From the NCBI GenBank assembly GCA_016934325.1, contig JAFGSV010000004.1:11538-75537 (forward strand): a stretch of DNA of 64,000 nt, in the 5' to 3' direction. How positions within the stretch are numbered: position 1 is the stretch's first letter; every line of letters starts with the position of its first letter. The stretch comes from Candidatus Aenigmatarchaeota archaeon (GTDB taxonomy: Archaea > Aenigmatarchaeota > Aenigmatarchaeia > QMZP01 > JAFGSV01). Shown in pieces: positions 9,817 to 58,700 of this stretch. The notes beneath the pieces were generated by a model. It was given only the letters and a program-made list of their open reading frames with translations. It had not been told where the DNA came from and did not search any database. The position numbers were made by a program, and so were the translations under genes.

Positions 9817-9966
9817 CCTCCTCCTGTTTGTTCTTCGGAAGAAATAAAAGCTTAATGTGTCACCACATCTTGCCCTCCCATCAAGATGTCACTACCTAAT
9901 ATATTTATGGGTACAATGGATTTATAAATGAAAAAATGAGATAATTCGATATCAGTAAGCGCTCTC

Positions 9967-38017: not shown

Positions 38018-39913
38018 TTAACCGAAGAAGACGACCCTCTTGCTCAGCAGCTTCGGCAACGGCAGCGGCCTGTTCGGGTAGCCCTTGATGGCCTTCTTTA
38101 TGATATTGGTGATCTCCGCCGCCTTCATGGCCTTGACCTTGCCCGTTTCCCTGAACCTGACCGCGAGCTTGCCGCTCTTCTTCTCCTTCTCTCCCATGAC
38201 CACTATCAGGTTGACCCACTCGGTCTCCGCGTCCCGTATCTTCTTGCCTATGGATTCGACCCTGTCGTCGATGTCAACCCTTATGCCTTCCTTTTCGAGC
38301 TGCTCCGCCACCTTCACGGCGGACGGCAGGAACCTGTCCGACACGGGGCACAGCCTGATCTGGGTGGGGGCCAGCCACAGCGGGAACACGGGGTTCTTGC
38401 CCCCCGCCTGCTGCATGTGGGCCTTCTCCAGGACGGAGTACATGACCCTCTCGATGGAGCCGCTCGGCGAAAGGTGAAGTATCACAGGCCTCTTCCTCTT
38501 GTTGTCCTTGTCGGTGAAGAGGATGCCGTACCTCTCCGCGTTCTCCACGTCTATCTGGTCGGTGGTCAGGCACGCCGCCTTGTCGAGCGCGTCGATGAAG
38601 TTCCACTCGTGCTTGAAGACGAAGTAGAAGAACCTCTTGTCCCATACCTCGACGAGAGCGGGCTTGCCCCACTTCCTGACGATGGCCGGAAGGTGCTCGG
38701 GGTTCTCCTTGCCGAAATCGGCAACCAGCCTGACGGAAAGCTCGAGGTCGTCGCTTGTGAGCCCGAACCCCCGCTGCACCCTTTGGGAGACGTCGAACCT
38801 GGTCATCATCTCCTGCTTCGCCTGCTTTACATCACTGCATATCGCATGGCAGTCAGGCATGGTGAAAGCCCTCAGCCTCCTAAGGCCGGCGAGCTCGCCC
38901 CTCTGCTCGACCCTGAAGGAATACCTGGTCAGCTCGTACAGCCTCATGGGCAGGTTCTTGTACGATATGGAGGAATCGTGGGTCATGAGGAACTGCCCGA
39001 AGCACGCGGAGAAGCGCAGGAAGACCTTCTTGTTGGGCGTCTGTATGTTGTACTGCCTCGCCGGGAACCTGTTCAGGTAGTCCTTGAGCGCGGGGTGCTC
39101 GCTGTCGTACATGATGGGGGTTTCGACCTCCATGGCCCCATACTCGAGCATCTTCAGGGTAACCCATTCCTCAAGCAGGCTCTTGATCATCTTGCCCTTC
39201 GGATAGTACCTGAAATGCCCGGGGTCAGAGCCTTCCTCGTAATCGACCAGCTCGAGGCGCCTCATCAGCTTTATGTGCGGGGGATCCTCCTTCACGGCCC
39301 TCGATTTTGCCAGCTCGTGCCTGACAAGCTTCTCGAGTTTCTCGTGCTTGCTGAAATCGAACCCCGAGATCTTCCCGTCCTTCGCTGCTATCTCGTGCAT
39401 CCTGCCGTCGGGGGTCGCGATGTACCAGCTGGATTTGAGCTCCTTCTCCTTCTCGAGCGCCTCCGATAAGCCAGTCTCCTTGCCTATCCTCCCCTCGGCG
39501 TTTATATCCCTGGAAAGCTCCGACAGGGGATGCCCCTTGCACTTGATGTCGAATCCCTTGTACCAGCCGAACGGAGCCCTCTTCACCTGCAGCTTCTCTG
39601 CCAGCAGCCGCTTCTCGATGCCCTTCAGGATGTTCAGGGCCGCGGAGGGGGAGGACGGAGTCTGCGACAGATGGACGAACGGGTAAAGGACGATGTTCTT
39701 CGCCTTCACCTGCTCGTAGACGTCCTTTATCTCCTTGACAGCGTTACCGATGATATTGCTTGGCTTGGACTCATCGCTCTTCTCGACGCTCGAGAAAACG
39801 ACCAGGGCCTCGTTCACCCTGACCGGGCCTTTCTTCGTGTCTTCGGCATCCTTGATGGCCTTCTTCTTGGGCTCGTACTTGATGAAATCGGAATGTATAA
39901 GCAGTATCTTCAT
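38018..39913 (-). CDS. thrS: Threonyl-tRNA synthetase, archaeal type with an N-terminal editing domain
   Basis: MKILLIHSDFIKYEPKKKAIKDAE (archaeal ThrRS editing-domain start). Class II core FRVEQRGELAGLRRLRAFTMPD. Anticodon-binding C-terminus. The ORF-track start is GTG 39922. Confidence 0.95.
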   Translation of the reverse strand: MKILLIHSDFIKYEPKKKAIKDAEDTKKGPVRVNEALVVFSSVEKSDESKPSNIIGNAVKEIKDVYEQVKAKNIVLYPFVHLSQTPSSPSAALNILKGIEKRLLAEKLQVKRAPFGWYKGFDIKCKGHPLSELSRDINAEGRIGKETGLSEALEKEKELKSSWYIATPDGRMHEIAAKDGKISGFDFSKHEKLEKLVRHELAKSRAVKEDPPHIKLMRRLELVDYEEGSDPGHFRYYPKGKMIKSLLEEWVTLKMLEYGAMEVETPIMYDSEHPALKDYLNRFPARQYNIQTPNKKVFLRFSACFGQFLMTHDSSISYKNLPMRLYELTRYSFRVEQRGELAGLRRLRAFTMPDCHAICSDVKQAKQEMMTRFDVSQRVQRGFGLTSDDLELSVRLVADFGKENPEHLPAIVRKWGKPALVEVWDKRFFYFVFKHEWNFIDALDKAACLTTDQIDVENAERYGILFTDKDNKRKRPVILHLSPSGSIERVMYSVLEKAHMQQAGGKNPVFPLWLAPTQIRLCPVSDRFLPSAVKVAEQLEKEGIRVDIDDRVESIGKKIRDAETEWVNLIVVMGEKEKKSGKLAVRFRETGKVKAMKAAEITNIIKKAIKGYPNRPLPLPKLLSKRVVFFG

Positions 39914-40247
39914 GCCACACACCGCAGCCTTACAACGACTGCCTTACAGCGGTATACATATAGTTGTCTCCATGCCCTTAAAAGCGAAACGCCGATCCGG
40001 GCAGCCACAATCCTCAGGTACATTTCCCGATCACCCCTGAAAGTCCCCGCAGGCGGGAAGAGGCACCGAAGCGATTCAAAAAAGAGAATCGAAAAAGGAG
40101 CAGTCCCATCCCCGCAAGCCATTGCAGACAGCCTAAGCTGTCGTGATTGTCTGTGTGTTTCTTGTTGTCGCGTCAAACGGGGACATATAATCTATTGAGG
40201 TGGCGGCGTTTATAAGCTTTGCTTCGATATCGATGAATATCAGAAAT

Positions 40248-41105
40248 TCAGCTGAAATCGGTGAGCTTCCTTCCGGCCGGTGCGATATCCTGCCCTGACG
40301 GCTTGAGGTCGAGCTTCTTGATTGCCTCCTTCACATGCTCCGTCTTGATCTTCCTGCTGGCAGCATGCTCCGCCGCCAGCCCGCTCGCCTTGAGCAGGGC
40401 CAGCCCCGTCCTTATGTCGCCGTTGCCGTAGCATTTCGCCGCGACGATCTCGAAGGCGTCTCGCTCCCAGACGTTCTGGACGAAGGCGTGCTTCTTCCTC
40501 TCTTCAAGTATCCGCCTGGTCTGCTCCATATCGTACGGCCTGAACTCTATCATCTCTGGTATGAGCCTCGACCGCACCCTGGTGTCAAGTCTGGCGAGCC
40601 AGTCCCTCTTTGTCGATATCAGGAATAGGCATTTGTGAGGCAGCTCCTCGACGAACTGGTACAGGAATGTCTGGTCGCTCGTCCGGTCTATCTCATCGAA
40701 CGCCAGGACAACCGACCCGAAAGACTTGAGCATGTGAATCACCAATGAGAACAGCTCGTCCGGGTTCCTGTATGAGGTGTTTATACCCAGTTGCCCGCAT
40801 AAGGAAAGGACCATCTTCTGCAGGTCCGTGTCCTTCCAGCAGTTGATGAGAATCGGGACCGTTTCAGAGCTTTCAGATTCCCTGAGCTCCCTGAAGATCC
40901 ACCTGATGCAGGCCGTCTTGCCTATCCCGGGTGGTCCATGGATGAGGATGTTCGTGCCGAGGGAAGGCAGGCGCTCGATGATGCTGGCCAGGTACTTCTG
41001 CTGCTCCTCCCTGAATGGCATGAGCCTGGGAAGATAATCTATGTCCAGGATTCCGGGGGATGTGAAGAGGGACTCTTCGTCCTTGAGCATGTCCTCAGAA
41101 TGCAT
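40248..41105 (-). CDS. cdc6: Orc1/Cdc6-like AAA+ protein, short form lacking the C-terminal winged-helix domain
   Basis: DYLPRLMPFREEQQKYL, Walker A ILIHGPPGIGKTA, Walker B LAFDEID, and lid GDIRTGLALLKASG. It ends about 20 aa after the lid (285 aa in total). Confidence 0.8.
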   Translation of the reverse strand: MHSEDMLKDEESLFTSPGILDIDYLPRLMPFREEQQKYLASIIERLPSLGTNILIHGPPGIGKTACIRWIFRELRESESSETVPILINCWKDTDLQKMVLSLCGQLGINTSYRNPDELFSLVIHMLKSFGSVVLAFDEIDRTSDQTFLYQFVEELPHKCLFLISTKRDWLARLDTRVRSRLIPEMIEFRPYDMEQTRRILEERKKHAFVQNVWERDAFEIVAAKCYGNGDIRTGLALLKASGLAAEHAASRKIKTEHVKEAIKKLDLKPSGQDIAPAGRKLTDFS

Positions 41106-41196: not shown

Positions 41197-41269
41197 AGCC
41201 CCGTAGTCTAGTGGTCAAGGATGGCAGGCTCTGGACCTGCAGACCCAGGTTCGAATCCTGGCGGGGCTA
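41197..41269 (+). tRNA. tRNA-Gln (anticodon CTG)
   Basis: Acceptor AGCCCCG/CGGGGCT. Anticodon arm GCAGG-CTCTGGA-CCTGC. T-arm CCAGG-TTCGAAT-CCTGG. Discriminator A. Confidence 0.9.
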
Positions 41270-41349
41270 TCCAAGCACGCTTGATGTCGTTTTTGTTGTG
41301 TCCAAGAGCGAGGGCTATAACAATATAAAACACATGACAAAATAATCTT

Positions 41350-41679
41350 ATGGATTTGGTTGACGAATTGAAAGAAAAACTGAAAAGATATTCGCGTGAA
41401 CAGATAATATTCACAACACATGCAAGAATACGTGCAATTCAAAGAGGTATCGATCTAGAAGATATTGTCGACAATATAATTAGGCCGGACAAATTAGACA
41501 CCGTAATCAGACAGAAAGCTGACAGACCTGACGAGGAAAAATTCGATTGTTACTTCATTTATAGCGGAAATTTGTGCCATAGGTATGTTTTAATACTTAA
41601 CAAGAAAATTATAATATGTACAGTGATAAAAATCAACAGAAGATGGCAAAGGAGAGTTGAGAAGCATGCAAGAGTTTAA
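41350..41679 (+). CDS. DUF4258-type putative toxin
   Basis: IIFTTHARIRAIQRGIDLEDIVDNI...IIICTVIKI fits the DUF4258 pattern (..t.HA..Rm.eRgI..e.i...). Confidence 0.65.
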   Translation: MDLVDELKEKLKRYSREQIIFTTHARIRAIQRGIDLEDIVDNIIRPDKLDTVIRQKADRPDEEKFDCYFIYSGNLCHRYVLILNKKIIICTVIKINRRWQRRVEKHARV

Positions 41680-42022
41680 ATTCGATTATGATAAAGAGAA
41701 TAACGACCTGTTTATTTACAGTGGTAAAAAGAAATCGACTGCAAGCGTCGAACTCGGAGATATAGTTTTTGATTTCGATAGCAAAAAGTCTCTTTCTGGA
41801 ATAGAAATCATGAATGCAACAAAATATCTGTCGGCATTGATTTCTGGATATAAAGTTAGCAAAAGTGCTCTTGCCAATCTATTATCATGTAAAGTGCAAT
41901 CTAAAATGATTAACAATTTCTTGCTAATCAAAATCATACTTGTAATGAAGGAAGAACAGCAAATTCCCGTAAATCTCACAGTCCCGAGAATCACAAGCCC
42001 AAGTCCTGCGATTGCATCATAG
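41657..42022 (+). CDS. DUF2283-type putative antitoxin with a C-terminal extension
   Basis: FKFDYDKENNDLFIYSG...VELGDIVFDFDSKKSLSGIEIMNATKYL fits the DUF2283 pattern. 23-nt overlap with the toxin ORF. Confidence 0.65.
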   Translation: MRSMQEFKFDYDKENNDLFIYSGKKKSTASVELGDIVFDFDSKKSLSGIEIMNATKYLSALISGYKVSKSALANLLSCKVQSKMINNFLLIKIILVMKEEQQIPVNLTVPRITSPSPAIAS

Positions 42023-42106
42023 AATGTCTATTATATTGAAACTCTTACTACCGCTTTCTTTATAAAATCTATGGATAATAAATAACCGGGGCTATAACCA
42101 AAAAAC

Positions 42107-42128
42107 GTTCAAACCCTGGCGGGGCTAT
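42107..42128 (+). repeat. att-like direct copy of the tRNA-Gln 3' end
   Basis: GTTCAAACCCTGGCGGGGCTAT compared with tRNA GTTCGAATCCTGGCGGGGCTAT (2 mismatches in 22). Confidence 0.65.
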
Positions 42129-42202
42129 ACGGTTTTATTTTCGAATCCCGTCAACTCATAACCCTGATTTTTAATTTCTATGTTTTCTTTGGAACACTGC
42201 GC

Positions 42203-42560
42203 ATGGAAATATTGCTTCAGAAGGTAGAGATAAGCGCCTGCGAAACAAGAGTTCTCATGCAGAATTACAAGATAATAGCCATAAGGGATTATTCAAGGAT
42301 ACCTGTTTTCAAGGCAAGTGTCTATCCGATTGTCATAATAATAAAGAAGGAAAAACCGAAAGAAAACAAGGTTTTAGCTGAACTCATGGAAGAGGACATA
42401 GACTTTGCTAAAGTCGGTCTTTCAAGGTCAATAGAACAAAGCCAATCCGACCGTTGGCTTTTTAACTTCTTACATGACAAGCACTTACGATTTAATAAAA
42501 ATTCCCCTTGCAAACATGACTCCATTATGATACCGTCATCCGGGCAACTAGTGCCTTTAT
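42203..42560 (+). pseudogene. Possible fragment of an Eco57I/TaqI-type DNA methyltransferase C-terminal (target-recognition) region
   Basis: IIAIRDYSRIPVFKASVYPIVIIIKKEKP resembles the C-terminal domain of type IIG/N6-adenine MTases. No catalytic motifs are present. The ORF then runs out of frame into the integrase gene. Confidence 0.3.
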
Positions 42561-42575
42561 TCACGGTGGTAACGC

Positions 42576-43580
42576 ATGAGAAAGACATGGACATACAAGA
42601 GGAAAAACATACCCGGGTGGTGGGTAGGATGGTACGAAGGAGGCAAGAGAAAGTCCAAGGCCTTCCCGAACAAGGCGCTTGCGGAGCATTTCGCCCAGAT
42701 AAAGTACCAGCAGGTCAACTCCGATGTCTTCACCAGCGTCGTCTCGGTGACATGGGATACACTGATGGAGGAATACGAGCAATCAAAGAGGGTCCGGGGG
42801 CTCACCGATGAAGGCATCTACCAGGCGATGCTCACCCTGAAGAAGCATTTCAGACATGCCTGCGGCCCCCTTAACTCAAAGCAGATCACCCAGGCCTCCC
42901 TTGACAAGTTCATCCTCAAGCGGGGGAAGCAGGTCGGCAGATTCACGCTGAACAAGGACATCTCGAACATGAAAGCGTTCCTCAACTGGGGAAAGAGGAA
43001 CAAATACATCAGCGAAGACGTCAGCGTCCATAAAGTCAAGGTCGATAACAAAGACGTCAAACCGTTAAACAGGAAGCAGGTAAAGAACCTCCTCCTCACC
43101 TCGCAGCAATACCCGACCTGGTACACGAGAATACTGCTGTCCCTCACCACGGGGCTGCGGAAGAACGACATAGAATCCCTCAGCGTCGCGGACATTGACT
43201 TCGAGATCAATGCAATAGATACCAGGAGCAAGAAGACCAGGAAAAGCATGCTCTTCAGGCCGCTGCCCCCGAAGGTGACAGACCACCTTGCGGTCTGCGT
43301 CGGCTCCCTGCCAGCAGGGCAGGTCAGACTCTTTACCGATAATCACACCCATAAGAAATGGAAGAAGATAAGGACACGGGCGGGGCTGCCGCACCTGCGT
43401 TACCAGGACCTGCGTGTCACGTTCAGCTCCCTCCTTGCCGAGGCAGGGGCATCGACCAGCGTCAGGCAGAGGCTGCTTGAGCATTCCTCACCGCAGATAA
43501 CCGAGGACTACTACACGAAAGTCCAGGACCCGGTTCTTCGCAACGCGGTGGACATGCTGCCGGTTGACGAATGGCTGTAG
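42576..43580 (+). CDS. int: Tyrosine recombinase / phage-type integrase
   Basis: N-terminal WWVGWYEGGKRKSKAF. Catalytic elements TGLRKNDI (R), YQDLRVTF (HxLR-like) and LLEHSSPQITEDYY (H...Y). Confidence 0.9.
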   Translation: MRKTWTYKRKNIPGWWVGWYEGGKRKSKAFPNKALAEHFAQIKYQQVNSDVFTSVVSVTWDTLMEEYEQSKRVRGLTDEGIYQAMLTLKKHFRHACGPLNSKQITQASLDKFILKRGKQVGRFTLNKDISNMKAFLNWGKRNKYISEDVSVHKVKVDNKDVKPLNRKQVKNLLLTSQQYPTWYTRILLSLTTGLRKNDIESLSVADIDFEINAIDTRSKKTRKSMLFRPLPPKVTDHLAVCVGSLPAGQVRLFTDNHTHKKWKKIRTRAGLPHLRYQDLRVTFSSLLAEAGASTSVRQRLLEHSSPQITEDYYTKVQDPVLRNAVDMLPVDEWL

Positions 43581-43588
43581 CGTTGTGA

Positions 43589-43792
43589 TCACACCAGCTC
43601 ACGCGGACTTACCTCCACCATCGCCAGTCTGAGCCATTCCTCAACGTCCTCCTTCCTGTACCGGACCAACCGGCCAAGCTTAGAATACTTCGGGCCTTTC
43701 CTCAACTGGCGCAGTTTCCTCAGGTACGATTCCCCCAGTCCGAACATCTCGGATATCTCTGCGGTGGAGTATGTCCTGAGTTCATAATCCAT
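43589..43792 (-). CDS. xis: Excisionase-family helix-turn-helix protein
   Basis: YSTAEISEMFGLGESYLRKLRQLRKGPKYSKLGRLVRYRKEDVEEWL is the typical HTH_17/excisionase pattern. Confidence 0.7.
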   Translation of the reverse strand: MDYELRTYSTAEISEMFGLGESYLRKLRQLRKGPKYSKLGRLVRYRKEDVEEWLRLAMVEVSPRELV

Positions 43793-43793
43793 A

Positions 43794-44528
43794 TTATTCT
43801 TCGCTCAAATCCATTCCATAAACAGACTGATACGTAATTTCATCAGAATCTCCTGGATCTCCGGGAACAGCGTCCATATCGATATCAAGCAGATTCTCCA
43901 TCTCTTCCAATTCAGCATACTGTTCCATTTCCTGTCTTATTGTCTCCCATGGATCTTCGTCCTGAGGAAAAGGGCCGTGCAAGGGACCGCTTCCTACAGG
44001 AATATCCGCGTATCCATCGCTCTCATCTTCCTGGACTATGTCCATTATCATCGCCCGGCTCGGCTCAAGGCTCTCGTTCCGTCCCTTGATGCCGAGGTAA
44101 TCCATGCCGGTCCTCCCAAGAATTTCCTTTACCTCCTCGTATGCCCTCTTTGAGAATCCGTCATAACGCATCCCCATGCAGATCATGCGATGCCTCCTGT
44201 CGCCGGTCGCAATCTCAAGCAATCCCCGCAGGTACATGGCACCTTCGTTGCTCACTGCATCTTCGGATGGATCGGCATCCGCATGCAGACGCCTGCCCTG
44301 AATCTCCTGGACAACTTCCCGGAACAGCGGCCCCTCAAGCTCGGCATAGCCATCGGTCCCGACTTTCGTGTCGCGGCTGCCGTAGAGAGCAGGCATGACG
44401 TACTGCCTGACAGTACGCCTGGAAAGAAGCCCGTGCCTCTGCAGGGAATCGAGGAAGGTCAAAGCCTCATTGGCGCCCATGATTAATAGTAAGCAGGCGC
44501 CTTTATATAGGTGACTTTTTTCCCACAT
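43794..44528 (-). CDS. Hypothetical protein with an acidic C-terminus (element cargo)
   Basis: 244-aa ORF directly downstream of xis. No motif. Confidence 0.5.
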   Translation of the reverse strand: MWEKSHLYKGACLLLIMGANEALTFLDSLQRHGLLSRRTVRQYVMPALYGSRDTKVGTDGYAELEGPLFREVVQEIQGRRLHADADPSEDAVSNEGAMYLRGLLEIATGDRRHRMICMGMRYDGFSKRAYEEVKEILGRTGMDYLGIKGRNESLEPSRAMIMDIVQEDESDGYADIPVGSGPLHGPFPQDEDPWETIRQEMEQYAELEEMENLLDIDMDAVPGDPGDSDEITYQSVYGMDLSEE

Positions 44529-44595
44529 TTCACGGCTCCGTATCAGGGCATCGGCTCGTTGAACGGGTCAGGAGGAATTCCTGCGGTGGGCCGGA

Positions 44596-45279
44596 GTGTT
44601 TGGGAATCGAGACTTCCTGCCACTGGCACGCCGGGAGCGGTCGATTGTCTTTGGCGGAGTTCTTGAGGATTTTCGCGGATGCCTTGGACAGATGCGTTTG
44701 GAGGATGTCCGGACCCTGGTCCAGACCAGGACGGACAAAATAAGGGAGGTTCTTGAGTCTGCCGAGAAGCGTGATTTGCCAACACCCGCGCCGGAGGTGA
44801 GGAAAAAGGAAGAGCGACAGAATCTGCTGGCGAAACATTTATTAGACGGTAGCCCTGTATACACAAACATGGTGGAGATTGATTTGCTTCGCCAGGATTG
44901 GAGAGACTCCGGATACGACAGGAATAAGTTCGGTCGGTACGTCGAGGATAATCCTGAAATGGCAGCGGATATTCTTATTGAGGAGGCGGGAACGGAAGGG
45001 AGCGAGGCACAGTTTGGTACCGCTAAATTCAAGGAGTTGTGGAGAGAGTTTTATCATACGTGCGGCCGCCGCGGCATAGAAAAGCCCTGGGACCGTGTGG
45101 CTGAATGGCTGTATACGAGAACGCGTTCGGCGCGACGGAGGGAATTGGACGAGATTTTGGCGGACTCCGTCGGGATGGCGTGTATGAGCGGCACATTGGG
45201 AGTGGTCACCTGGGACAACGTCAGCGAGAAGGTCAAGCGTAGCATATACAGGGATTGTGCTAGGAGATATCTTAAATAG
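44596..45279 (+). CDS. Hypothetical protein (element cargo)
   Basis: 227-aa ORF. No motif. Confidence 0.5.
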   Translation: MFGNRDFLPLARRERSIVFGGVLEDFRGCLGQMRLEDVRTLVQTRTDKIREVLESAEKRDLPTPAPEVRKKEERQNLLAKHLLDGSPVYTNMVEIDLLRQDWRDSGYDRNKFGRYVEDNPEMAADILIEEAGTEGSEAQFGTAKFKELWREFYHTCGRRGIEKPWDRVAEWLYTRTRSARRRELDEILADSVGMACMSGTLGVVTWDNVSEKVKRSIYRDCARRYLK

Positions 45280-45288
45280 GAGAGGTAG

Positions 45289-45909
45289 GTGCGTTCGAGA
45301 ATATTAGATCACGGGATCCGTATTTTGGGCGGCTTCTGTCGTCTGTTTAACCTGTTGCGGCCCCTGATTCTGGTTACTTCCGTCCTATTCGCTCTCGCGA
45401 GCTGTTGGGCAGATAGCCTCATCTGGTCCGTATTAATCTTGCTTGCTGCACCGTGCGCGGTGTTGTGCTGGGTCACGTGCGCGGGGCCCAGTTTTCGCCG
45501 AAAGGCTGACGAACCGCCAACAGCTTTTTTTGTGGGCTTGTACATGATCTCAACCTACGTTCTCTTGGTGATGATCTTCGCATGCGCGTTCTTGGCAGCA
45601 GAGAGGTTTGGCGGCGAAATTGTGTGTACTTCGAACCGTGTCCCTATTGATCGAGAACTATTCCGGGACTACGTATATTTTAGCGTTGTTTCGGGCAGTA
45701 CGCTTGGATACGGGGAACTGACGCCCCTGGGACTGACTCGTCTGTTTGTTGGCATTGAGGTTATCATGTTCTGGCTTTTCATCGTTTATAAAGCGATATA
45801 TTATTGTAACTACCTTATCGAGATACATAGGTGGGATACTGTCGGCATTGTGCATTACACCTTTTTCAGACACCTTACGAAGAGTTCTCATAACTTCTCT
45901 GCCGACTGA
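45289..45909 (+). CDS. Two-pore-helix-type K+ channel-like membrane protein (Ion_trans_2-like)
   Basis: GTG start. TM helices. Selectivity-filter-like YFSVVSGSTLGYGELTP followed by the inner helix LFVGIEVIMFWLFIVY. No cytoplasmic gating domain. Confidence 0.65.
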   Translation: MRSRILDHGIRILGGFCRLFNLLRPLILVTSVLFALASCWADSLIWSVLILLAAPCAVLCWVTCAGPSFRRKADEPPTAFFVGLYMISTYVLLVMIFACAFLAAERFGGEIVCTSNRVPIDRELFRDYVYFSVVSGSTLGYGELTPLGLTRLFVGIEVIMFWLFIVYKAIYYCNYLIEIHRWDTVGIVHYTFFRHLTKSSHNFSAD

Positions 45910-46249
45910 AACACCAAACTTTATTCCGCCCGTTTCCAGATTCAAGTCGGCAGGTAGTCCCAGAAGTTCACTCAAATCAACATGAGCACACATCTTCTTA
46001 CCTCCGAACCAATCACCTCACCGTTACTCTCTGTAAGCTTGTGCCTCGAAAGCCCGTTTTGAGCCGCGCTTAAGCAATATATATATTTTCTGTGGCGATG
46101 TCAACAATATTTTCTTTTTGCACGTATCGCGCATCGAAACACTCACACCCATTCCGATCACTCCTCCCTGCCATGAAGCGAACAGTTTTCATAAACCTGT
46201 GGCGGCAACGATGGTGAGGAGTTCAAGTAGCAAAGGCACCAACACTCCC

Positions 46250-46942
46250 TCATGCGGCTTCAGAGTACCGAGCAATCTTGTTTCTGGGCCGTTTGGCAGT
46301 GGTATCCTGGATCAGAACATTCAAGGGCTTACCTGAGGCCGGTTGGATTCTGGCGCACCTGATTATTGCTTCACAGAAGCCCATAGCTTCTTGCCTATCC
46401 CTCCCCATGGCACGTCCGGTACGCGTTTTGAATCGAACTGCTTTCAACCACTTCAACAGCCTCTTTGCCGTCTCAACCGGTCCGCGGTTCTCGTCCAACG
46501 CAGATTCTTGTAGGATCCGCGCCACTCCTAACGGCGTGATGGCATCAAGCTTGTCTGCATCAAAGAGACAGTCACCTTCGAGTGTTCGAGGTTCGTTTGT
46601 AGGACTATCAATACTGTGTTGGCGAATGACACGACAGATTTGTGGCACGTTTGCAAAGCCACAGTCTTCTAATATTACTTTTGCCTTCTTCGCTCCCAAG
46701 GTTGCATGGTGCTTGTTCGTCACATGGAGTGTTCCTTTTTCTAAACTAATGTCATGTAGCATTGCGGCGGGCAAAAGAATTGATAGTTGAGCTCGCTCTG
46801 CTTGTCCGATGATCTGTGCCCTCTTTACCACCCTTCTTATGTGGGCCAAATTGTGGTCACACGAGTTCTCGGAATAAAGCTTTGGTAGACGAGTCTTCAG
46901 GTCGTCGATAGGCTTCATATTGTAAAATTTGCGAGAAAACAA
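46250..46942 (-). CDS. HD-domain metal-dependent phosphohydrolase
   Basis: HNLAHIRRVVKRAQIIG...LLPAAMLHDISL (H...HD) and a later FDADKLDA. Confidence 0.8.
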   Translation of the reverse strand: MFSRKFYNMKPIDDLKTRLPKLYSENSCDHNLAHIRRVVKRAQIIGQAERAQLSILLPAAMLHDISLEKGTLHVTNKHHATLGAKKAKVILEDCGFANVPQICRVIRQHSIDSPTNEPRTLEGDCLFDADKLDAITPLGVARILQESALDENRGPVETAKRLLKWLKAVRFKTRTGRAMGRDRQEAMGFCEAIIRCARIQPASGKPLNVLIQDTTAKRPRNKIARYSEAA

Positions 46943-46951
46943 ATATAAACC

Positions 46952-47596
46952 TTACACATCGACGGCACCATTCTTCGTTTTGCTACCAAACAAAGCACGG
47001 ATCCGGTCCAAAATGTTAATTACTTGTTGTCTAAGTGAGTTATCTGTACCGCTGTTGTCTATAGCAAAATCCATGAGTTGCATGGCCTCGGACAAGTGGT
47101 ATATCTGCTCCTCATCCGCCATCAATTTTAACAACTGATCCTTGTCATACTCAGATTCTATATTCCGTCTGCGCGTAATAAGCCGTTTTAGTCGAACATC
47201 TGTGGGAGCAGCAATACCGACTGCAATTGTATTCGGCATCATTTCCCGAATCTTTCGAAGTCCGCTTGGGCTCCTACAACTATCAACTATATAGACCCGC
47301 TCGGAGTTCCCCTCCTTGACAATTATCTCTGCGATTAGCTGCGATATGACCCCTCTACCCCTTTCAGCGTACAACGCCCGAATCAGTTGATTTAGTCCCT
47401 CTCTCGTAAGGGGAAGCTCCCTAATCTTCAGCATTGGAAGGTAAATATCATCGAAGACACGAATGACTCCAACGTTCATTCCACAATCACAAAGCAAACT
47501 TGCCAGATGCTGAGCAGTAGAGGTCTTTCCTGCTCCCATTGGTCCATAGAGTAAAAGGACATAATTGTAGATACGTTCAGTATGATTCTTCATCAC
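46952..47596 (-). CDS. P-loop kinase-like NTPase (AAA_33/zeta-toxin/dNMP-kinase-like)
   Basis: Walker A LLLYGPMGAGKTS and Walker-B-like VYIVDSCR. Small kinase-sized protein (214 aa). Its stop lies 9 nt before the HD gene start. Confidence 0.7.
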   Translation of the reverse strand: MMKNHTERIYNYVLLLYGPMGAGKTSTAQHLASLLCDCGMNVGVIRVFDDIYLPMLKIRELPLTREGLNQLIRALYAERGRGVISQLIAEIIVKEGNSERVYIVDSCRSPSGLRKIREMMPNTIAVGIAAPTDVRLKRLITRRRNIESEYDKDQLLKLMADEEQIYHLSEAMQLMDFAIDNSGTDNSLRQQVINILDRIRALFGSKTKNGAVDV

Positions 47597-48230
47597 CTTA
47601 ACCTATCGATTTCATTAAAGGGATCCTCCAGGTTCACACGAGCACGGGAGTATCTACTTTTTCTTCTCCCTTCGCTTGTTTATCGTCTTCACCCAAGTTT
47701 CGAGTTCCTCGATATCCTTCGCAAGCTCATCGGGGCCGGGGATGCTGAAGCTTTCGGTCGGACGCGCGTGGCCGCTTCCGCCGCTGAAGCCACGGAGTAA
47801 TGACGGAGAGGCACCGACCAGGGACGTGCTGCTTCACCTGTCAAGGGTGTTCATGCTGAAGATGGGAAACGAATGGGTGCTTTCGGAAGTGCCGAAGAAA
47901 CCGAGGGTCATGCTTGAAAAGATGGGAATGGAAAACATATTACGTAAATTCAACTGAGATAAGGGTTAAACCATCGATAACGTTCCAGACCATCGATAAT
48001 GCACCAAGATCAGGGGTTGGGCCTTGCCACTCGTTAACGCACCAGTATCCTTTTCAGGAGGTTTTTAAAATGTACTACAATTTTGTAATACATGTTACAA
48101 TTTTATTACACATATGGGCATTCCAAATGGTAACAGTTTTATACATAAGCCATATAAGCGGGAGCAATAGTGTCCTGCAGAGGCGGTAAAAACCGCCCGG
48201 AAAGTCCGGCACGAGACGCTTGAAATACGG

Positions 48231-48245
48231 CCCTAGCGAGGCTAT
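48231..48245 (+). repeat. Degenerate third copy of the tRNA-Gln 3'-end att core
   Basis: CCCTAGCGAGGCTAT compared with CCCTGGCGGGGCTAT at 42114-42128. Confidence 0.45.
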
Positions 48246-48267
48246 GCCATGTGTGCACTCTCCAATT

Positions 48268-48816
48268 TCACAGTATCTCGTCCTCCCACTTGTAGAGCCT
48301 CTTCCTGTATCTCCAGACAAGCATTGTTATCAGGAATCCGAAGATCAATCCTGCCGCGACGTCCGTGACGGTGTGGACATCCAGGATGATCCTCGAAGCC
48401 GCGACGAGCAGGGGCAGTATGAAAAGGGGCAGGTATCTCCTCCTCCTCAGCAGCAGGTAGAGCGCGGTCACGATCCCCGTGGACGTCGCTGCGTGGCCCG
48501 ACGGGAAAGAGAATGTGATGGGGCAGTACGGGTTGCACCCCGGGGCCGGGCACATGATGCATGGCCTCGGAACCATGAAGGCGAGCTTCAGCAGCTCCGA
48601 ACCCAGCATGGATATCGCCAGGGCCGGGATTATCAGGAGGAGGTACTTCTTCAGCAGGCGCCTGTAACCGGCGGCTTCCTTCCCCATCGGATGCCTGATC
48701 CCGAGCAGGAAGTATATCCCAGTGAGGCAAATCACGAAGGCTGTCGACAGCAGGGGGGAGCCCAGAAGGGTTATCATTACCCAAAGCTGCTCGTACATGA
48801 AAACACCGGTTATCAT
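48268..48816 (-). CDS. PAP2-family membrane phosphatase
   Basis: KLAFMVPRP (KxxxxxxRP), PSGHAATS (PSGH) and SRIILDVHTVTDV (SRxxxxxHxxxD). Confidence 0.85.
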   Translation of the reverse strand: MITGVFMYEQLWVMITLLGSPLLSTAFVICLTGIYFLLGIRHPMGKEAAGYRRLLKKYLLLIIPALAISMLGSELLKLAFMVPRPCIMCPAPGCNPYCPITFSFPSGHAATSTGIVTALYLLLRRRRYLPLFILPLLVAASRIILDVHTVTDVAAGLIFGFLITMLVWRYRKRLYKWEDEIL

Positions 48817-48835: not shown

Positions 48836-49564
48836 TCACGCCTCGTCGGCCGGCTCCACTTTGACGCCTATTGCCTCGAGGTTCTCCTTGAACCTCTGCA
48901 AGGCCCTCCGTATTGACTCGAAGTTCTGAGCGCCTGCGATGATGATCCGGCCGCTGCCGAAGAGGAGGAAAGCCACCCTCGGGTCGCTTATCCTGTAAAC
49001 GAGGCCGGGGAACTGCTCGGGCTCGTATTCGCTGTTCTCTAGCGTGCTTGCGATCTCGTCCAGGTTCAGGTCCGCCTTGATCTTGGTCGAAGATACTATG
49101 TTCTCGACCCTGGTCTTGTACTTCCTCGGCATCGGTATGCCGGCCTGCCTGACCCTGTCGACTATCTTCTTCATCGCCCTCTCCAGGTCTTCCAGGGACT
49201 TCGTCCCGGTGCAGACTACCTTCCCCTGGGAAAAGATGAGCGCAGACGCCCTCGGGTCCGTTATCTTGTAAACGAGGCCGGGGAACTGCTCGGGCTGCCA
49301 TTCGGTGTTCTCCACCTTCTTGAGGAGCAGCTCGAGCGATATGGGCTTGCCCAGGGTCGTGAAGGCCACTATGTTCTGGACCTTGATCTTGAATTCTGCC
49401 CGCTTCGCCTCCACCTTCCGCGCCGCCTTCATCGATTGCCCCTTCACGGCCTTGACCGTCGCCTTCTTCGCAGCCTTCTTCAGGGCCTTCATAGATTGCT
49501 TCTTCAAAGCGTTCTTGGCTGACCTCTCCAAGGGTTTCGCTTTGGCATGATGTTTTTTCCTCAT
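48836..49564 (-). CDS. tbp: TATA-box binding protein with a ~55-aa Lys/Ala-rich N-terminal extension
   Basis: Two TBP repeats (VQNIVAFTTLG...PEQFPGLVYKI...IFSQGKVVCTG and VENIVSSTKI...PEQFPGLVYRI...LFGSGRIIIAG). ATG 49564 is preceded by AAATATTTAA at 49599-49590. The ORF-track start 49690 is rejected. Confidence 0.9.
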   Translation of the reverse strand: MRKKHHAKAKPLERSAKNALKKQSMKALKKAAKKATVKAVKGQSMKAARKVEAKRAEFKIKVQNIVAFTTLGKPISLELLLKKVENTEWQPEQFPGLVYKITDPRASALIFSQGKVVCTGTKSLEDLERAMKKIVDRVRQAGIPMPRKYKTRVENIVSSTKIKADLNLDEIASTLENSEYEPEQFPGLVYRISDPRVAFLLFGSGRIIIAGAQNFESIRRALQRFKENLEAIGVKVEPADEA

Positions 49565-49589
49565 GCATATTATTAGTCCGGCATGACCC

Positions 49590-49599
49590 TTAAATATTT
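49590..49599 (-). promoter_or_regulatory. Putative TATA box of the tbp promoter
   Basis: AAATATTTAA centred about 31 nt upstream of ATG 49564. Confidence 0.45.
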
Positions 49600-49679
49600 C
49601 GCAAGAATCGGTGCCAGCGAATCGTGGCCGGACGGTCCGGAAGATTCGAATCGGACGGTATGAGCGAAGGCCCGGAAAG

Positions 49680-51407
49680 CTATCCTTCAAGCTCGTCTAT
49701 GAGCTCCAGCTCGTCGCCCCTGAGCCTGCCCCTGAGCTTGTTGAGGACCGCGACGTCCTCATGGCTGAGCGAGACGTCGAGCTCGTCCCCTTCCTCGATG
49801 TTCCTGCCGACCGTCGCCCCTTCTATCGACACGGCGACCTGCTCCCCCGCCTTGGCATCGCTCACGTTCTCTCCCTGTCTCTGCAGCTCCTTTATCTCGC
49901 CCACGACGTTCCCTTCCTTCTTGAGCTTGTTGCCGGGCTTTATGATGCCCTTCATGACCTCGACGCCGACTATCGCGGGCTTCGACTGCCTGAACAGGTA
50001 GCCCGGCATTATCCTGAATCTGCCGGGCCTGTTCACGCTTGCCAGCATGTCATCCTCGCGCCTCTTTGCCGTGTCCTTTTCCCATTTCTCGTATCCCTCC
50101 ACGAGCCTGTAGATCACGTCGCTTGAGAACACCTTCACTTTGTTGTCGCCGGCAATCTTCGCGATGTCGGGCGGCAGCCTGGCGTTGAATGCGAAGATGT
50201 AAGGCTTGGGCAGGCTCTTCATCTCCATGACATCCTGCTTGGTGACCTCGCCTATCTCGGCCTTCCTGATGGGGACCTCGATGGCCTTCAGGGTCTTGAC
50301 AAGGGCTTCAAGGGATCCAAGAGTGTCGGCCTTGAGCATGACCCCCCTGTTCTCGGTGTCTATCTCGACCTCGCTCACCTCTTCCGAGATCTCCTGCCTG
50401 ACCTCTTCTATCCTTCTCTGGTCGCTCACGGCCCTGAGGGGTGATCCAGCCACCACCTTCTCGATTTCCGGAGCCGCGATCTTCACGCCGCAGGCCGCGG
50501 TGACATGCCTGACAGGCAGGAAGACCTTCTCGACCCTCATCTCCTTCATCGGGTTCGGCTTGAGCATGGCCCTTATCTTGGTCACGACGATGTCCTTGAT
50601 GCCTATGACGAGCCAGTCCCCGTTCTTTATCTCGCCGTCATAGAGGATGACGTCAATGGTCGTGCCGAGGCCCTTGAACTCGTTGACCTCGAGCACCGTC
50701 CCCTTGCCTTCGCCCGAAGTCACGTTCAGCCTGTCCTTCAGGAACCTCTGGGCCAGGCCCGTGAGTAACATCAGCAGGTCAGGGATTCCCTCACCGGTTA
50801 TGCCGCTGACCGGTATTATGCTCAGCTTCTGCCTGAAATCCTCCACCCTGTCGTACCTGTCCGACTCGAATCCTTGGACCGCAAGCTGTCCCGCGATCGA
50901 GTACAGCTTCTTCTCGAGCTCGTCCTGGACCCTCTTGGGCTGGTTGGCCCATGCCTCCACGAAGCTCGCCCCCTCCTTCCGAACCCAGCCGGCGATCCTG
51001 TCTATCTTCGTCAGGGCGATGATGAAAGGCGTCTTGAAATCGCGCAGGAACCTGATCGACTCCAGCGTCTGTGGCTGGATGCCCTCGTTCACGTCTATGA
51101 CGAGGACTGCTATGTCCGCGATAGCCCCTCCCCTCTTCCTCAGGGTAGTGAATGCCTCATGGCCGGGCGTGTCGATGAAAAGGAGCCCGGGGATCTCCAC
51201 CCTCACGTTCATCTTCCTCAGGAGCGGCCCGCACAGTTCCTTGATGTAGCCGATGGGTATCTCGCTTGCCCCTATGTGCTGCGTTATGAGCCCCGCCTCG
51301 CCCTTCGCGACAAGGCTGCCCCTGACGTAATCCAGCAAGGTCGTCTTGCCATGGTCGACATGGCCCAGCACCGCCACTATGGGCTGCCTCAGCGTCATCT
51401 CCGCCAC
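49680..51407 (-). CDS. infB: Translation initiation factor aIF5B (IF-2)
   Basis: RQPIVAVLGHVDHGKTTLLDYVRG, DTPGHEAF and TKID. Domain order is that of aIF5B. Confidence 0.95.
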   Translation of the reverse strand: MAEMTLRQPIVAVLGHVDHGKTTLLDYVRGSLVAKGEAGLITQHIGASEIPIGYIKELCGPLLRKMNVRVEIPGLLFIDTPGHEAFTTLRKRGGAIADIAVLVIDVNEGIQPQTLESIRFLRDFKTPFIIALTKIDRIAGWVRKEGASFVEAWANQPKRVQDELEKKLYSIAGQLAVQGFESDRYDRVEDFRQKLSIIPVSGITGEGIPDLLMLLTGLAQRFLKDRLNVTSGEGKGTVLEVNEFKGLGTTIDVILYDGEIKNGDWLVIGIKDIVVTKIRAMLKPNPMKEMRVEKVFLPVRHVTAACGVKIAAPEIEKVVAGSPLRAVSDQRRIEEVRQEISEEVSEVEIDTENRGVMLKADTLGSLEALVKTLKAIEVPIRKAEIGEVTKQDVMEMKSLPKPYIFAFNARLPPDIAKIAGDNKVKVFSSDVIYRLVEGYEKWEKDTAKRREDDMLASVNRPGRFRIMPGYLFRQSKPAIVGVEVMKGIIKPGNKLKKEGNVVGEIKELQRQGENVSDAKAGEQVAVSIEGATVGRNIEEGDELDVSLSHEDVAVLNKLRGRLRGDELELIDELEG

Positions 51408-55700: not shown

Positions 55701-58700
55701 ATTGATGGAAAGGTTGCAATCGGTCAGCGTGCAGTCGGCATAGCTGCCCTGAGACATGGACGCAACGTTCCCGCTGCCGGCCGCGCCGAAGCAGTAGCTC
55801 TCGTTCGCCGATCCGTTCATCTCCAGCCCGACCTCCTCGATGTAACCCGCGAATTCCCTTTTGAACCATGCGGAAACCGAGCTGACATCGGAAACGTTAC
55901 CGGCGACGTAGGCGTTAAGGACGACATTCGTCTCCACGCTTGCGCTCTCCGGGGACGCGAAGGCCACGGGAAGGACGACCTCGTGCGACATCATGCCCGT
56001 CGTATTCGTTCCGTTGCCCGGGACGGCCTCGAGGGCCAGCCTGGTGATGCCGCCGGACGAGGTCAGTACATCCCATCCGAACGAATGCGTGCTTCCGTTG
56101 AGCATGTATTCCACGCTCTTGGGGGGCAGGACGCCGGAAACATTGATAACGGACCCGCCGGTGCTGTTCAGGGTCAGGTTCAGATCGAGCACATCGCCAT
56201 CAGAAGCGGTGACCTCAACGGAGTAGTTGAAGCTCTGGTTCACAAGTATTCGGTAGTTCTGATGTATGAAATGGGCTGAAATCTTCCCGAAGCCGACATC
56301 GAATGATATGTCGCTGTGAACCACCCTCCCGTCCAGGCTCAGGTTCGCGAACATCCGGACTGCGTGACTGCCAGACCTTGACGGGAGCAGGCTGGAATTG
56401 GTGAAATTCCAGTACCTGCAACCGTCCGCGTCCGTGTATGATGAGTTGGACAGCTTCATGCTATCGCTGACATCCGCCGTGTGATTGGAATAGTTGATTT
56501 CCGCCCAAACTGAATCGACTTCGCTCTGCAGGTCCGTCGTGACATTCGCTGACAGGATTATGAGGTCACCGTAATCCGGCTGGCTGTCGGATGCGGAAGC
56601 ATCGATCGCGAACTCGATCACGGTCATGTTCTCCTCCAGTTCATTCTGGGCGCTGGCGTTGTAGTATAGCGAGGGCTGATCAGTGATGTTGCACTTGACG
56701 ACATACCACGCTTCGCCGTCCGTTCCGTCATTGAACGAAAAAGCGGCCCTTCCGTCCGAGTCGGTCATGTTGCTGCCGATATAGGTATCGTTCATGAAGA
56801 AGGAGACGTTGTAGCCAATCAAAGCGGCCGATGAATGGGAATCTGCCACGTAACAAATCATCCTGTTGGAAGTGCCGTTAAGTATGACATCATGATCTAT
56901 TGATGCCGATGCCACGGACGCGTTGGCCCATAGAAAGAACCATGCGGACGGGGATGTCTGGTTAGAGTTTAGGCCGGCCAGGACGTATATGTGCTTGACC
57001 TCGATTTGGCCGCCCCGCACGAATTCGCCGGTGTCCGAGAGGTTCAGGGTGTAGTTCGTCCAGTTCCCGGCGTAAGGTCCGGGGATATAATAATCTTCGA
57101 AATCGCCGGTTCCGTTGTGCCTGACTTTCGCTTCCTCCGGGCCATCCTGCAGTATCCAGTGTGCGGACGCGTTGAGAGCCTGGTCCCTGGTGAACGAAAG
57201 GCCATTACCGAGCGGCCCCCCACTCGTATGGTTCGTCAGGTTCCAGTAATCCCACTCCGCGGACGACCACGACAGGACGATCGGCAGGAAGTCGGTGTTG
57301 TTTTCGTTGAGAGAAAGGCCGTAGTCGCATATGCCGTTCGTCTGGGAGGAGCAGTTCTCGGAGAATCCCGTCCCGTTGGGATGTGCCCAGAAGTTGCCGC
57401 CCAGGCAGGGCCCCCCCATTATGTTCTTTCCGCTCCCGAAGCAGTCGAGCGTGGTGTTCCAGTTGTTTATGGCCGTCAAGCCAACCAACAATGCGTTATT
57501 CGTGTTGTTGAGGAAGTTTTCGAATATGTTGTTCGGGCCCGCCCATCCGGCTTCGTTTGAGATGAAAAACCCACTGGCGCTATTATTGGTTATCGTATTG
57601 TTAGTGATCCGTCCCCTGTGCGAAGAATAGAGTCGGATTCCGTAATTGTTATAGCTGACCGTGCTGTTTGTGATATTTGTGTCGAAGTTGCTGTCGACGA
57701 ATATGCCGATAGACGAATGCGTGGCGTTTATCCCTGTCAGGGAGTTCCTGTGACAGTTTAATTTTACGTATATTCCGTTGCTGTTTTCCCACACAGTTAT
57801 TCCATCCAGCTTGTTGTCGTGAGAAAAGTCTTTTATTTCGATGCCATTTGATTGATCGTGCGAAACCGCGTCGATGACAGTGTTGTTCGAGCTCGTTTGG
57901 AACTGTATCCCGCATTCTGTGTTGTTGTAGGTGCTGCAGTTCAAGATGTAGCTGAAATCCACATAGTGGATATGGAAGCCTGTGTACCAATTTTTCGCAT
58001 GGCAGTTGGCGATGGTGAGATTCCTTAGATGGTTACCAGAAAGACCCTCGACCTGTATGCCCCGGCTATTTAAAAATTTGGAGCCCACTATCTCATGCCC
58101 CTGGCAATCGAACGTCACGTCGCTGGAGGTGATGTTGAAGCACGTCACTTCCGATGACACGGAGTTGTTGAGGTAGTAGACGCCGGGGGAAGTGATGTTC
58201 ATGCAGTCCGTCACGTTGCTGGGCGGGGAAAAGGCCACGCTGATGTTCCATCCCTCGCTCTCGCCCCGATTGCCGTAGTCGTCCATGCAGGACACTTCCC
58301 AATAATAATCGCCATTTCCCATAGCCTGTCGGAATGTCTGGTTGATATTCTTCAGCACGCTTGTGGTAGTGTTCTCGATAATCCCATACACGCCCAGTTT
58401 CCTGATATCTGCCGAAACCCAACCCAGATCGACGGTCCCGCCGATAGAAATCACCTGTTTATTGATATCGTCCCAGACCTGAGCATCAGTAACAACCTTC
58501 CCGAAATCGCCGCTGATATTCTGCACGGTATACGTGTTTATGTTGAATCTGGACGCGTTCAAGTCCCAGATCGGTCCTGACGTCCAATTGAACAATCCCA
58601 TTTGATAGTATACCCAATCACCGACCAGCACACCTGCGGCACCGTATGATCCGTGGGGTGAATTGGCAACGATGGAAGCGGTCTGTGAAGTCTTGTTGAA

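Follow-up and report, generated by a model that had tools for sequence, protein, structure and literature searches.

Islands linked to transfer RNA (tRNA) genes are routine. In elements of the SSV type ('suicidal' elements), the integrase gene itself contains the attachment (att) site, and a fragment of the gene is therefore left on either side of the element once it has integrated. The island described here follows the tRNA-Gln(CTG) gene in a window of 64,000 nt (G000:C19:11538-75537) of a Candidatus Aenigmatarchaeota genome, and positions are given in the numbering of this window. The studied genome (G000) is a metagenome-assembled genome (MAG) of 1.24 Mb in 35 contigs, 79% complete and with an estimated contamination of 0.14%; the window lies on its 102-kb contig C19. 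The named relatives of its 285-aa Cdc6 paralogue belong to Aenigmatarchaeota and then to other DPANN groups, therefore the host is a DPANN archaeon. With a probability of about 0.6, we read the locus as a composite island at tRNA-Gln(CTG), formed by a recombinase that acts in trans, carrying a passenger from Planctomycetota and altered by an exchange of flanks at att sites.

Tandem integration at one locus has been described in archaea (review 'Archaeal tyrosine recombinases', PMC8371274). The locus resembles tRNA-gene islands in that direct repeats of the tRNA 3' end bound the insert, the intact tRNA is regenerated and the segments stand in tandem; the cargo includes toxin-antitoxin and defence-like genes, and the composition deviates from that of the host. 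Unlike such islands, it has no cognate integrase in its segments, nor do five related arrays; its sole integrase has another specificity and comes from another domain of life; and the same core also occurs at a second chromosomal site, which is not a tRNA gene. It differs from the SSV type as well, since no integrase fragments abut att1, att2 or att3, whose neighbours are a toxin-antitoxin pair, an unassigned open reading frame (ORF) and non-coding DNA. The locus is a known type of hotspot with unusual details.

The integrase of pTN3 drives chromosomal inversions in Thermococcus (Cossu et al. 2017, PMC5495485). As in those inversions, the synteny breakpoints of our locus lie at att or tRNA-derived sequences, and an inversion between two att copies would explain them most simply; in contrast with pTN3, the island is known from sequence alone, its repeats measure only ~14-15 nt and its host belongs to DPANN, not to Thermococcales. 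Integrons have been reported in Archaea (Ghaly et al., bioRxiv 10.1101/2022.02.06.479319 / PMC9668308), and the island shares with integrons the small promoter-poor cassettes, often with toxin-antitoxin genes, each ending in a recombination site, and the implied trans-acting recombinase; as in the integrons reported in Archaea, the array holds cross-domain DNA. However, the features by which integrons are recognized, an adjacent IntI and attC hairpins, are lacking: the array has neither a neighbouring IntI nor an attI, and imperfect palindromes of the attC type are absent. Its repeated site mimics a tRNA 3' end, and its cassettes dock at a tRNA gene.

We propose that elements with an attP mimicking the tRNA-Gln 3' end would integrate site-specifically at tRNA-Gln, and that each segment left behind would carry an element end ('arm') of ~90-100 nt plus a 14-15-nt copy of the tRNA 3' end. 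Segment 1 would be the right-hand remnant of a first element family (toxin-antitoxin genes plus arm A). Segment 2 would end in arm B, common to the tRNA-Gln arrays of another relative, with a truncated Planctomycetota piece riding inside it as a passenger. The recombinase for the tRNA-Gln-type junctions would be encoded outside the island and the related arrays, acting in trans. The same core would mark a second site between aRF1 and PAP2, and an inversion at att copies would swap the flanks, linking tRNA-Gln to PAP2 and aRF1 to the former tRNA-Gln flank. The island is framed by the following features, where GC is the G+C fraction:

41197-41269, plus strand: intact tRNA-Gln(CTG) gene (ARAGORN; Rfam, 66 bits)
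41249-41270, plus strand: att copy 1 (att1), the 3' end of tRNA-Gln, with core TCCTGGCGGGGCTAT
41271-42128, plus strand: segment 1, 0.86 kb, cargo with GC 0.34, then arm A and att2
41350-41679, plus strand: DUF4258 toxin-like gene (Pfam)
41657-42022, plus strand: DUF2283 antitoxin-like gene (Pfam)
42040-42128, plus strand: arm A and att2, including a CCGGGGCTATAACC sub-repeat and the variant T-loop GTTCAAAC
42107-42128, plus strand: att2, GTTCAAACCCTGGCGGGGCTAT, 20/22 to the tRNA-Gln 3' end
42129-48245: segment 2, 6.1 kb, a mosaic ending in arm B and att3
48150-48245, plus strand: arm B and att3, the decayed right end of a second element family, with an 18-nt hairpin insertion
48231-48245, plus strand: att3, CCCTAGCGAGGCTAT, degenerate, 13/15 to att2

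A match of the att2 grade to the tRNA end is expected 0.00 times by chance in the window. Taken by itself, the att3 match is weak, as 0.12 such matches per window (both strands) are expected by chance. Comparison was made with MAGs or metagenome contigs: two congeners (G001, G002), relatives (G003, G004, G005, L126), a member of a different genus (G007) and a metagenome relative (L127). By this comparison att3 is taken as a genuine att copy, because its position after PAP2 is conserved in the two congeners and its upstream arm is homologous in L127. In G001 a tRNA-Gln 3'-end fragment (ATAGCCCCGCCAGGAC, 15/15 to the tRNA), and in G002 its counterpart (ATGGCCCCGTCAGGGTTCGAAT), lie 24-27 nt past the PAP2 stop in the same orientation as att3 in the window. 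Across the 1.24 Mb of the assembly, CCTGGCGGGGCTAT is found as an exact 14-mer in only three places, namely the tRNA, att2 and C15:57095, where it begins right behind the aRF1 stop codon. A dispersed intergenic repeat was rejected as the identity of the core, since exact copies number only 3 in 1.24 Mb. When up to 3 mismatches are allowed, the core has 70 matches in the studied genome against about 41 in shuffles; one of this grade near an ATP-grasp gene on C22 was dismissed, as it lies inside a radical-SAM coding region.

The island thus has an intact tRNA-Gln at its proximal end and a tRNA 3'-end repeat at its distal boundary. The site is empty in G004, and the island genes tested (integrase, kinase-like and HD genes) have no close orthologues in 30-60 relatives. 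GC falls at tRNA-Gln from 0.49-0.57 to 0.34, rises again to 0.53-0.57 at about 42450-42600, drops to 0.44-0.50 at about 45600 and jumps to 0.59 at 48200. Several claims of an earlier note on this DNA are confirmed by these results: the three copies of the tRNA-Gln 3' end, the role of tRNA-Gln as an integration hotspot, with arrays of core copies also in relatives, the division of the region into two segments by the repeats, and an island end at ~48245, just past the PAP2 stop. Of the three points at which it proposed to map compositional shifts, 41270 and 48245 show a break but 42128 does not, the break lying about 300 bp to the right of att2. It had also described small fragments clustering around the middle site. 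One of them, CCGGGGCTATA, is real, at 42086-42096 (one base off the coordinate then given), but is part of the conserved arm A and not a separate scar, because the arm that contains it recurs almost identically in G007. The other, TTCGAATCCC, is present at 42140-42149; the chance expectation of a 9-10-mer is ~0.1-0.5 per window, and no comparison with relatives supports this fragment. The sequence AGCGAGGGCTAT at 41307-41318, 37 nt past the tRNA end, resembles the decayed att3 core AGCGAGGCTAT and is possibly a further degenerate core, or a scar at the left junction of the toxin-antitoxin remnant.

The origin of segment 1 is indicated by the array of G007, whose distal segment ends in the same DUF4258/DUF2283 pair, with protein identities of 88% and 92% against 72% for ThrRS. 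Arm A and the core are nearly identical at both distal att copies of G007, including CCGGGGCTATAACC and GTTCAAAC, and at the middle att the arm stands behind quite different cargo, a gene joining bAvd and a reverse transcriptase (RT). Homology between the window and G007 begins about 35 nt before the toxin ATG, therefore the window keeps only the last ~0.8 kb of such an element. Judged by this homology, segment 1 is the right end (toxin-antitoxin genes, arm and core) of an element also located at tRNA-Gln in another genus, and its earlier description as an integrase-less remnant with a toxin-antitoxin pair holds. The pair is also found in the metagenome contig L137, with about 85% nucleotide identity; there the homology stops at the gene ends, with no att and no tRNA alongside. 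In the tRNA-Gln-proximal segment of G007 (L163, G007:C75, 8698-11577), the bAvd-like and RT fusion is of the diversity-generating retroelement (DGR) type, and a 289-aa protein of the same segment may be the variable target of this RT.

Arm B (48150-48230, ~100 nt) is homologous to the arms preceding both distal att copies of the L127 tRNA-Gln array. The consensus with L127 is GTCCGGC..GAGACGCTTGAAA.ACGG|CCCT.GCG.GGCTAT, the window copy having the 18-nt hairpin insertion, and the arm is single-copy in the studied genome. An RNA gene was considered for arm B and rejected, as there is no Rfam match and the fold is not better than that of shuffles (z -1.2). In AT-rich DNA near the PAP2-side att, TGTTACA / TGTAACA motifs are clustered both in the window (48040-48110) and in the Fic island of G001 (L032 2200-2255), and could be protein-binding sites or promoters.

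The only integrase of the island belongs to a foreign piece inside segment 2, with these features:

42444-42461, plus strand: foreign att core AATCCGACCGTTGGCTTT, 18 nt, equal to the 3' end of Planctomycetota tRNA-Thr(TGT)
42576-43580, plus strand: tyrosine integrase, full length, 334 aa (Pfam Phage_integrase)
43589-43792, minus strand: HTH_17 excisionase-like gene (Pfam), convergent with the integrase gene
43794-44528, minus strand: 244-aa gene, partner gene of the foreign element, from an 11-protein family
44546-44581, minus strand: last 12 codons of a 194-aa gene (tblastn 10/12, GIPPDPFNEPMP vs GFPPDPFNKPMP)

Close homologues of the integrase are lacking in 60 related archaea, where only two weak matches were found (26-28% identity, E about 1e-8). 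Its relatives at 75-87% identity over 100% of the length are metagenome proteins, and a copy in a Pirellulales-labelled MAG is 83% identical; homologues at ~55% identity come from named Planctomycetes / Sedimentisphaerales. A scan of one genome per prokaryotic species gave 66 loci, all bacterial: 63 in Planctomycetota MAGs labelled Phycisphaerae, Sedimentisphaerales or 'Pirellulales', and one each in a Bacteroidales, a Deltaproteobacteria and an unclassified bacterium. The close copies sit amid bacterial genes (sigma-70, DprA, S1, GcpE, prepilin-type N_methyl), and in all relatives of at least 75% identity whose upstream sequence was examined, the integrase lies ~120 bp downstream of a bacterial tRNA-Thr(TGT). 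The excisionase is 77% identical to the one beside the 83% integrase, and the 244-aa family is always encoded directly upstream of an HTH_17 gene. The module order is DUF87/HerA-like gene, 409-428-aa gene, 194-aa gene, 244-aa-type gene, excisionase and, where the contig reaches it, integrase.

These tRNA-Thr(TGT) elements of Planctomycetota (Phycisphaerae/Sedimentisphaerales) have no published name and are defined here from the loci L039-L046, L092, L103 and L112-L117. The window shares with them the core, the leader, the integrase (75-87%), the excisionase (77%) and a partner gene of 225-249 aa, in the same order; the core AATCCGACCGTTGGCT lies ~115-130 bp upstream of the integrase gene, and the HTH_17 excisionase is convergent downstream. 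Unlike them, it is in an archaeal chromosome away from tRNA-Thr, and it lacks the complete module, the 194-aa, 409-428-aa and DUF87/HerA-like genes being gone; nothing of the upstream 428-aa and 298-aa module genes was found in the window. The core at 42444-42461 is invariant in alignments with four to five bacterial loci where it ends tRNA-Thr. It stands 316 bp to the right of att2, and similarity extends from it across the leader and on into the integrase gene; leftward of 42444 the alignments showed no tRNA similarity and no tRNA-Thr sequence. A second copy of the tRNA-Thr core was found neither in the window, nor in the studied genome, nor in the fetched bacterial loci. The foreign fragment is assigned to ~42444-44581 because the tRNA-Thr core stands at its left and the truncated 194-aa gene at its right, and the GC of 0.53-0.57 fits. 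By these comparisons, an integrative element of Planctomycetota is the source of this ~2.1-kb piece, a truncated part that retains the att core, the integrase and excisionase genes and a single partner gene, and the passenger appears to have been acquired across domains.

This identification changes the view of the 6.1-kb part, which had been taken for one element with its own integrase and excisionase: these genes are of a Planctomycetota family, have their own tRNA-Thr core and belong to a truncated piece. The block common to the tRNA-Gln-type copies is CCTGGCGGGGCTA, whereas the tRNA-Thr core reads CCGACCGTTGGCT; the two have just the T-loop GGTTCGAATCC in common. From this difference we infer that the integrase of the window did not make att1, att2 and att3. 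The island has repeats of the tRNA-Gln type, and its only integrase is of the bacterial tRNA-Thr(TGT) type.

Arrays of the same core were found in related genomes. The copies listed below are exact copies of the 13-mer core, for which the reversed-pattern control gave 0 wherever run:

G000: 3 copies, in the window and at the aRF1 stop on C15
G001: 6 copies; tRNA-Gln, 0.94 kb, att, DEAD-NTase-HEPN...; further segments are LigT, att, TopoIB-like gene, att, and aRF1, att, Fic, att, PAP2
G002: 0 exact copies; aRF1, att, ATP-grasp, att, PAP2, with both cores degenerate (1-3 mismatches)
G005: 3 copies
G007: 3 copies; ThrRS, tRNA-Gln, 2.87 kb, att, 5.75 kb, att
L126: 1 copy and one 2-mismatch copy; tRNA-Gln, 378-bp Zn-ribbon cassette, att
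L127: 2 copies and one 1-mismatch copy; segments of 6.35 kb and 2.0 kb
G004: 1 copy; tRNA-Gln followed directly by a parvulin gene, an empty site, with no second core copy in the genome

Six genomes (G000, G001, G002, G007, L126 and L127; five assemblies and one metagenome contig) hold ~14 att-bounded segments that have a few conserved ends in common, many of the segments of one or two genes (toxin-antitoxin, NTase/HEPN, Fic, Zn-ribbon, TopoIB-like, DGR-type RT). Phage_integrase had no match in the segments of the related arrays examined, and no integrase is conserved beside tRNA-Gln in G000, G001, G003, G004, G007 and L126. Since no array encodes a cognate integrase, the recombinase at tRNA-Gln-type sites would have to act in trans, and, judged by the working of att sites at tRNA ends in known systems, it is presumably a tyrosine recombinase. 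The other tyrosine recombinases of the studied genome (a XerA-like one on C12, two on C4 and one on C31) are not linked to a tRNA-Gln-type core. In G001, a 355-aa gene with a topoisomerase IB catalytic core of eukaryotic type (PF01028, 4e-11) lies at L164 (G001:C13) 2730-4022, between two exact copies of the tRNA-Gln core and beside LigT; an enzyme of this fold is odd as an att-flanked cassette and is a conceivable recombinase candidate, and the gene has no homologue in the studied genome. The tRNA-Gln gene itself has an intron in the D-loop region in G001 (L022 ~3349-3470) and L127 (~9808-9935) and two introns in G004 (L165 ~5299-5470), with none in G000, G003 and L126; ARAGORN misses the intron-bearing copies.

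The right-hand flank of the island is explained by comparison with the second site of the core. In L126, a single contig carries ThrRS, Orc, tRNA-Gln, a cassette, att, BNR, LigT, YdjM, Macro, DUF498, ..., IleRS, HD and DHH. In the studied genome the block LigT-YdjM-DUF498-...-IleRS-HD-DHH is found on C15, downstream of aRF1, in the order aEF2, aRF1, TAG|TCCTGGCGGGGCTAT, a 475-bp cassette, att' (TCCTGGCAGGGCCAC), NTase-HEPN and the LigT block, and PAP2-TBP-aIF5B follows the tRNA-Gln island. The 50-nt arm of this att' is homologous to the arm of the tRNA-Gln-proximal cassette of G001. The convergent genes aRF1 and PAP2 are adjacent in G003, and only att-flanked cargo lies between them in G001 and G002; the junction of att3 and PAP2 is present in congeners whose tRNA-Gln is elsewhere. 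Both reciprocal products are present in the studied genome, therefore the right-hand flanks have been exchanged at att copies, most likely, on the gene orders compared, by an inversion on one circular chromosome. Serial insertion alone, as first suggested, is not enough for this locus, since LigT...IleRS, natively the distal flank of tRNA-Gln, is here attached to aRF1, which needs a rearrangement from att to att. The base before CCTGG is the tRNA-type T in the aRF1 copy of the studied genome, and C in att2, as at aRF1 in G001 and G002; this is a hint that the crossover took place at the left core edge. On this reading, the 6.1-kb segment was probably first inserted between aRF1 and PAP2 and reached tRNA-Gln through the inversion.

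Other observations concern the aRF1 locus on C15. The 11-mer TAACCCCTGAA occurs exactly twice in the genome, at 57554-57564 and 58641-58651, near the downstream ends of adjacent cassettes (the 475-bp cassette and NTase/HEPN), where about 0.6 occurrences are expected by chance; it may belong to a third type of arm, or be a chance repeat. The aRF1 gene (C15:54340-57093) is one 917-aa ORF with a ~509-aa intein (CVHED...VLHN|S), whose middle is homing-endonuclease-like. The intein lies inside the motif that replaces GGQ; the intein-less protein of G001, G002 and G003 reads KKGGWSQAR where the canonical GGQ context would be expected, apparently an unusual state for a release factor of class I.

Other explanations were weighed against the composite island. 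If two elements had integrated serially in tRNA-Gln and the 6.1-kb one had used its own integrase and excisionase, att2 would be attL and att3 attR. The position of the two genes just inside att2, as in many tRNA islands, and the full-length integrase ORF speak for it, and a rare off-target event is conceivable with a T-loop, GGTTCGAATCC, identical in the bacterial tRNA-Thr and the archaeal tRNA-Gln. We nevertheless judge it improbable: the integrase family is bacterial and each close relative examined adjoins tRNA-Thr(TGT), the window keeps the tRNA-Thr core 316 bp to the right of att2, the tRNA-Gln-type identity block is not in that core, and the foreign module is truncated at 44581. Moreover, the same arms end related arrays that do not have this integrase, and congeners without it have the att3-PAP2 junction. 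An artefact of assembly or binning, with the bacterial piece or the linkage of tRNA-Gln and PAP2 as a chimeric join, could be imagined for a 79%-complete MAG in 35 contigs with an integrase of an otherwise bacterial family. It is very improbable, as the foreign piece has archaeal core genes to its left and right within the 102-kb contig, is truncated, and has an integrase at most 87% identical over its full length to any known bacterial copy. In addition, the exact repeats of 13-15 nt are too short to mislead assemblers working with k of at least 21, and att3 is a degenerate copy. The two reciprocal products of the exchange lie on long contigs (C19 and C15) and have homologous cassette arms, and the estimated contamination is low.

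A closer competitor is an integron-like platform, with tRNA-Gln and aRF1-PAP2 as docking sites for integrase-less cassettes moved by a recombinase encoded elsewhere or by a helper element; each cassette would end in a recombination site of 60-100 nt with a mimic of the tRNA end. The ~14 segments without a cognate integrase, many of 1-2 genes, would agree with it, as would the presence of one arm at the end of unrelated cargo in G007 (the RT cassette and a surface-protein/toxin-antitoxin cassette) and the different cargo abutting the same PAP2-side junction in three congeners. On the other hand, the same pattern of arm plus core is expected if related autonomous elements integrated serially and then decayed, the docking site has no conserved recombinase gene next to it, the arms do not have the hairpin symmetry of attC (z -1.2 for the fold of arm B), and no free cassette circles were seen. 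We therefore hold the platform to be possible but doubtful. The wider proposal, that a DPANN family would have integron-like docking at tRNA-Gln and at a mimic of it at the aRF1 stop, taking in bacterial mobile DNA and driving inversions, seems to us equally unlikely. The composite island is our preferred reading, and some points weigh against it. No cognate integrase was identified anywhere, and three scans of IMG/VR for free attP forms (arm B with core, arm A with core, and the 23-nt tRNA end) were empty. The cassettes could be decayed, once-autonomous elements and not trans-mobilised ones. The core copies in the aRF1-PAP2 spacer may derive from secondary-site integration or from an older rearrangement, and 42129-42443 may be either the other arm of the foreign element, with the true attP, or archaeal DNA. 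The genomes are all fragmented MAGs, and the exchange of flanks may have been a rearrangement other than an inversion.

The remainder of segment 2 and the neighbouring genes are arranged as follows:

38018-39922, minus strand: ThrRS
40248-41105, minus strand: Orc1/Cdc6 paralogue, 285 aa, without a winged-helix domain (Pfam Cdc6_lid and AAA_22)
42129-42443, plus strand: AT-rich spacer, GC about 0.37-0.40, holding the N-terminal part of the next ORF
42203-42811, plus strand: unassigned ORF, with a weak PADLOC MTase_II match only
44596-45279, plus strand: 227-aa ORF without detectable relatives
45289-45909, plus strand: small pore protein like K+ channels, cargo (Pfam Ion_trans_2)
46250-46942, minus strand: HD phosphohydrolase, cargo operon (Pfam HD)
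46952-47596, minus strand: P-loop kinase-like protein, cargo operon (Pfam AAA_18)
47600-48267: ~650 bp with no convincing gene
48268-48816, minus strand: PAP2 phosphatase (Pfam), the first core gene to the right of the island
48836-49690, minus strand: TBP
49680-51407, minus strand: aIF5B

The ORF at 42203-42811 had been called a methyltransferase fragment, a name that is not supported: the PADLOC MTase_II match covers 43 residues with an E of 0.003, and Pfam and NCBIfam gave no match. The 227-aa ORF, perhaps not a real gene, has no family match and no relative in the metagenome scan. The kinase-like protein is similar to the kinase portion of the anti-phage dCTP deaminase (PADLOC 4e-15; NCBIfam antiphage_deaminase 9e-9), and the HD phosphohydrolase gene starts 9 nt past its gene; neither has a close orthologue in 30 relatives. 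By these matches, the two genes are possibly a nucleotide-depletion defence pair carried as island cargo.

The 285-aa Orc1/Cdc6 is the kept left neighbour of tRNA-Gln, and its orthologues adjoin tRNA-Gln and ThrRS in G001, G002, G003 and L126. The second Orc1 of the studied genome, of full length, is on C11. The Cdc6 paralogue without winged helix has hundreds of relatives (260-290 aa and about 350 aa) across DPANN lineages. The short gene is a conserved gene of the lineage, not a broken one, and lies outside the island; its adjacency, remarked upon before, stands, but it is not island DNA. On the right, the order PAP2-TBP-aIF5B is kept in G001, G002 and G003.

The intact integrase-excisionase module of Planctomycetota, with its own att core, in a DPANN chromosome is a datable trace of cross-domain traffic of mobile elements. 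It also calls for caution, as the att sites of an island are not assignable to whichever integrase lies within it. The ~14 segments without a matching integrase point to mobilisation in trans, and the arms A, B and C with the core are defined substrates for finding the enzyme. To our knowledge, the shaping of genome order by att sites has been shown experimentally only for Thermococcus. The presence of the core at the breakpoints of the flank exchange suggests that att sites of elements shape gene order in these small genomes.

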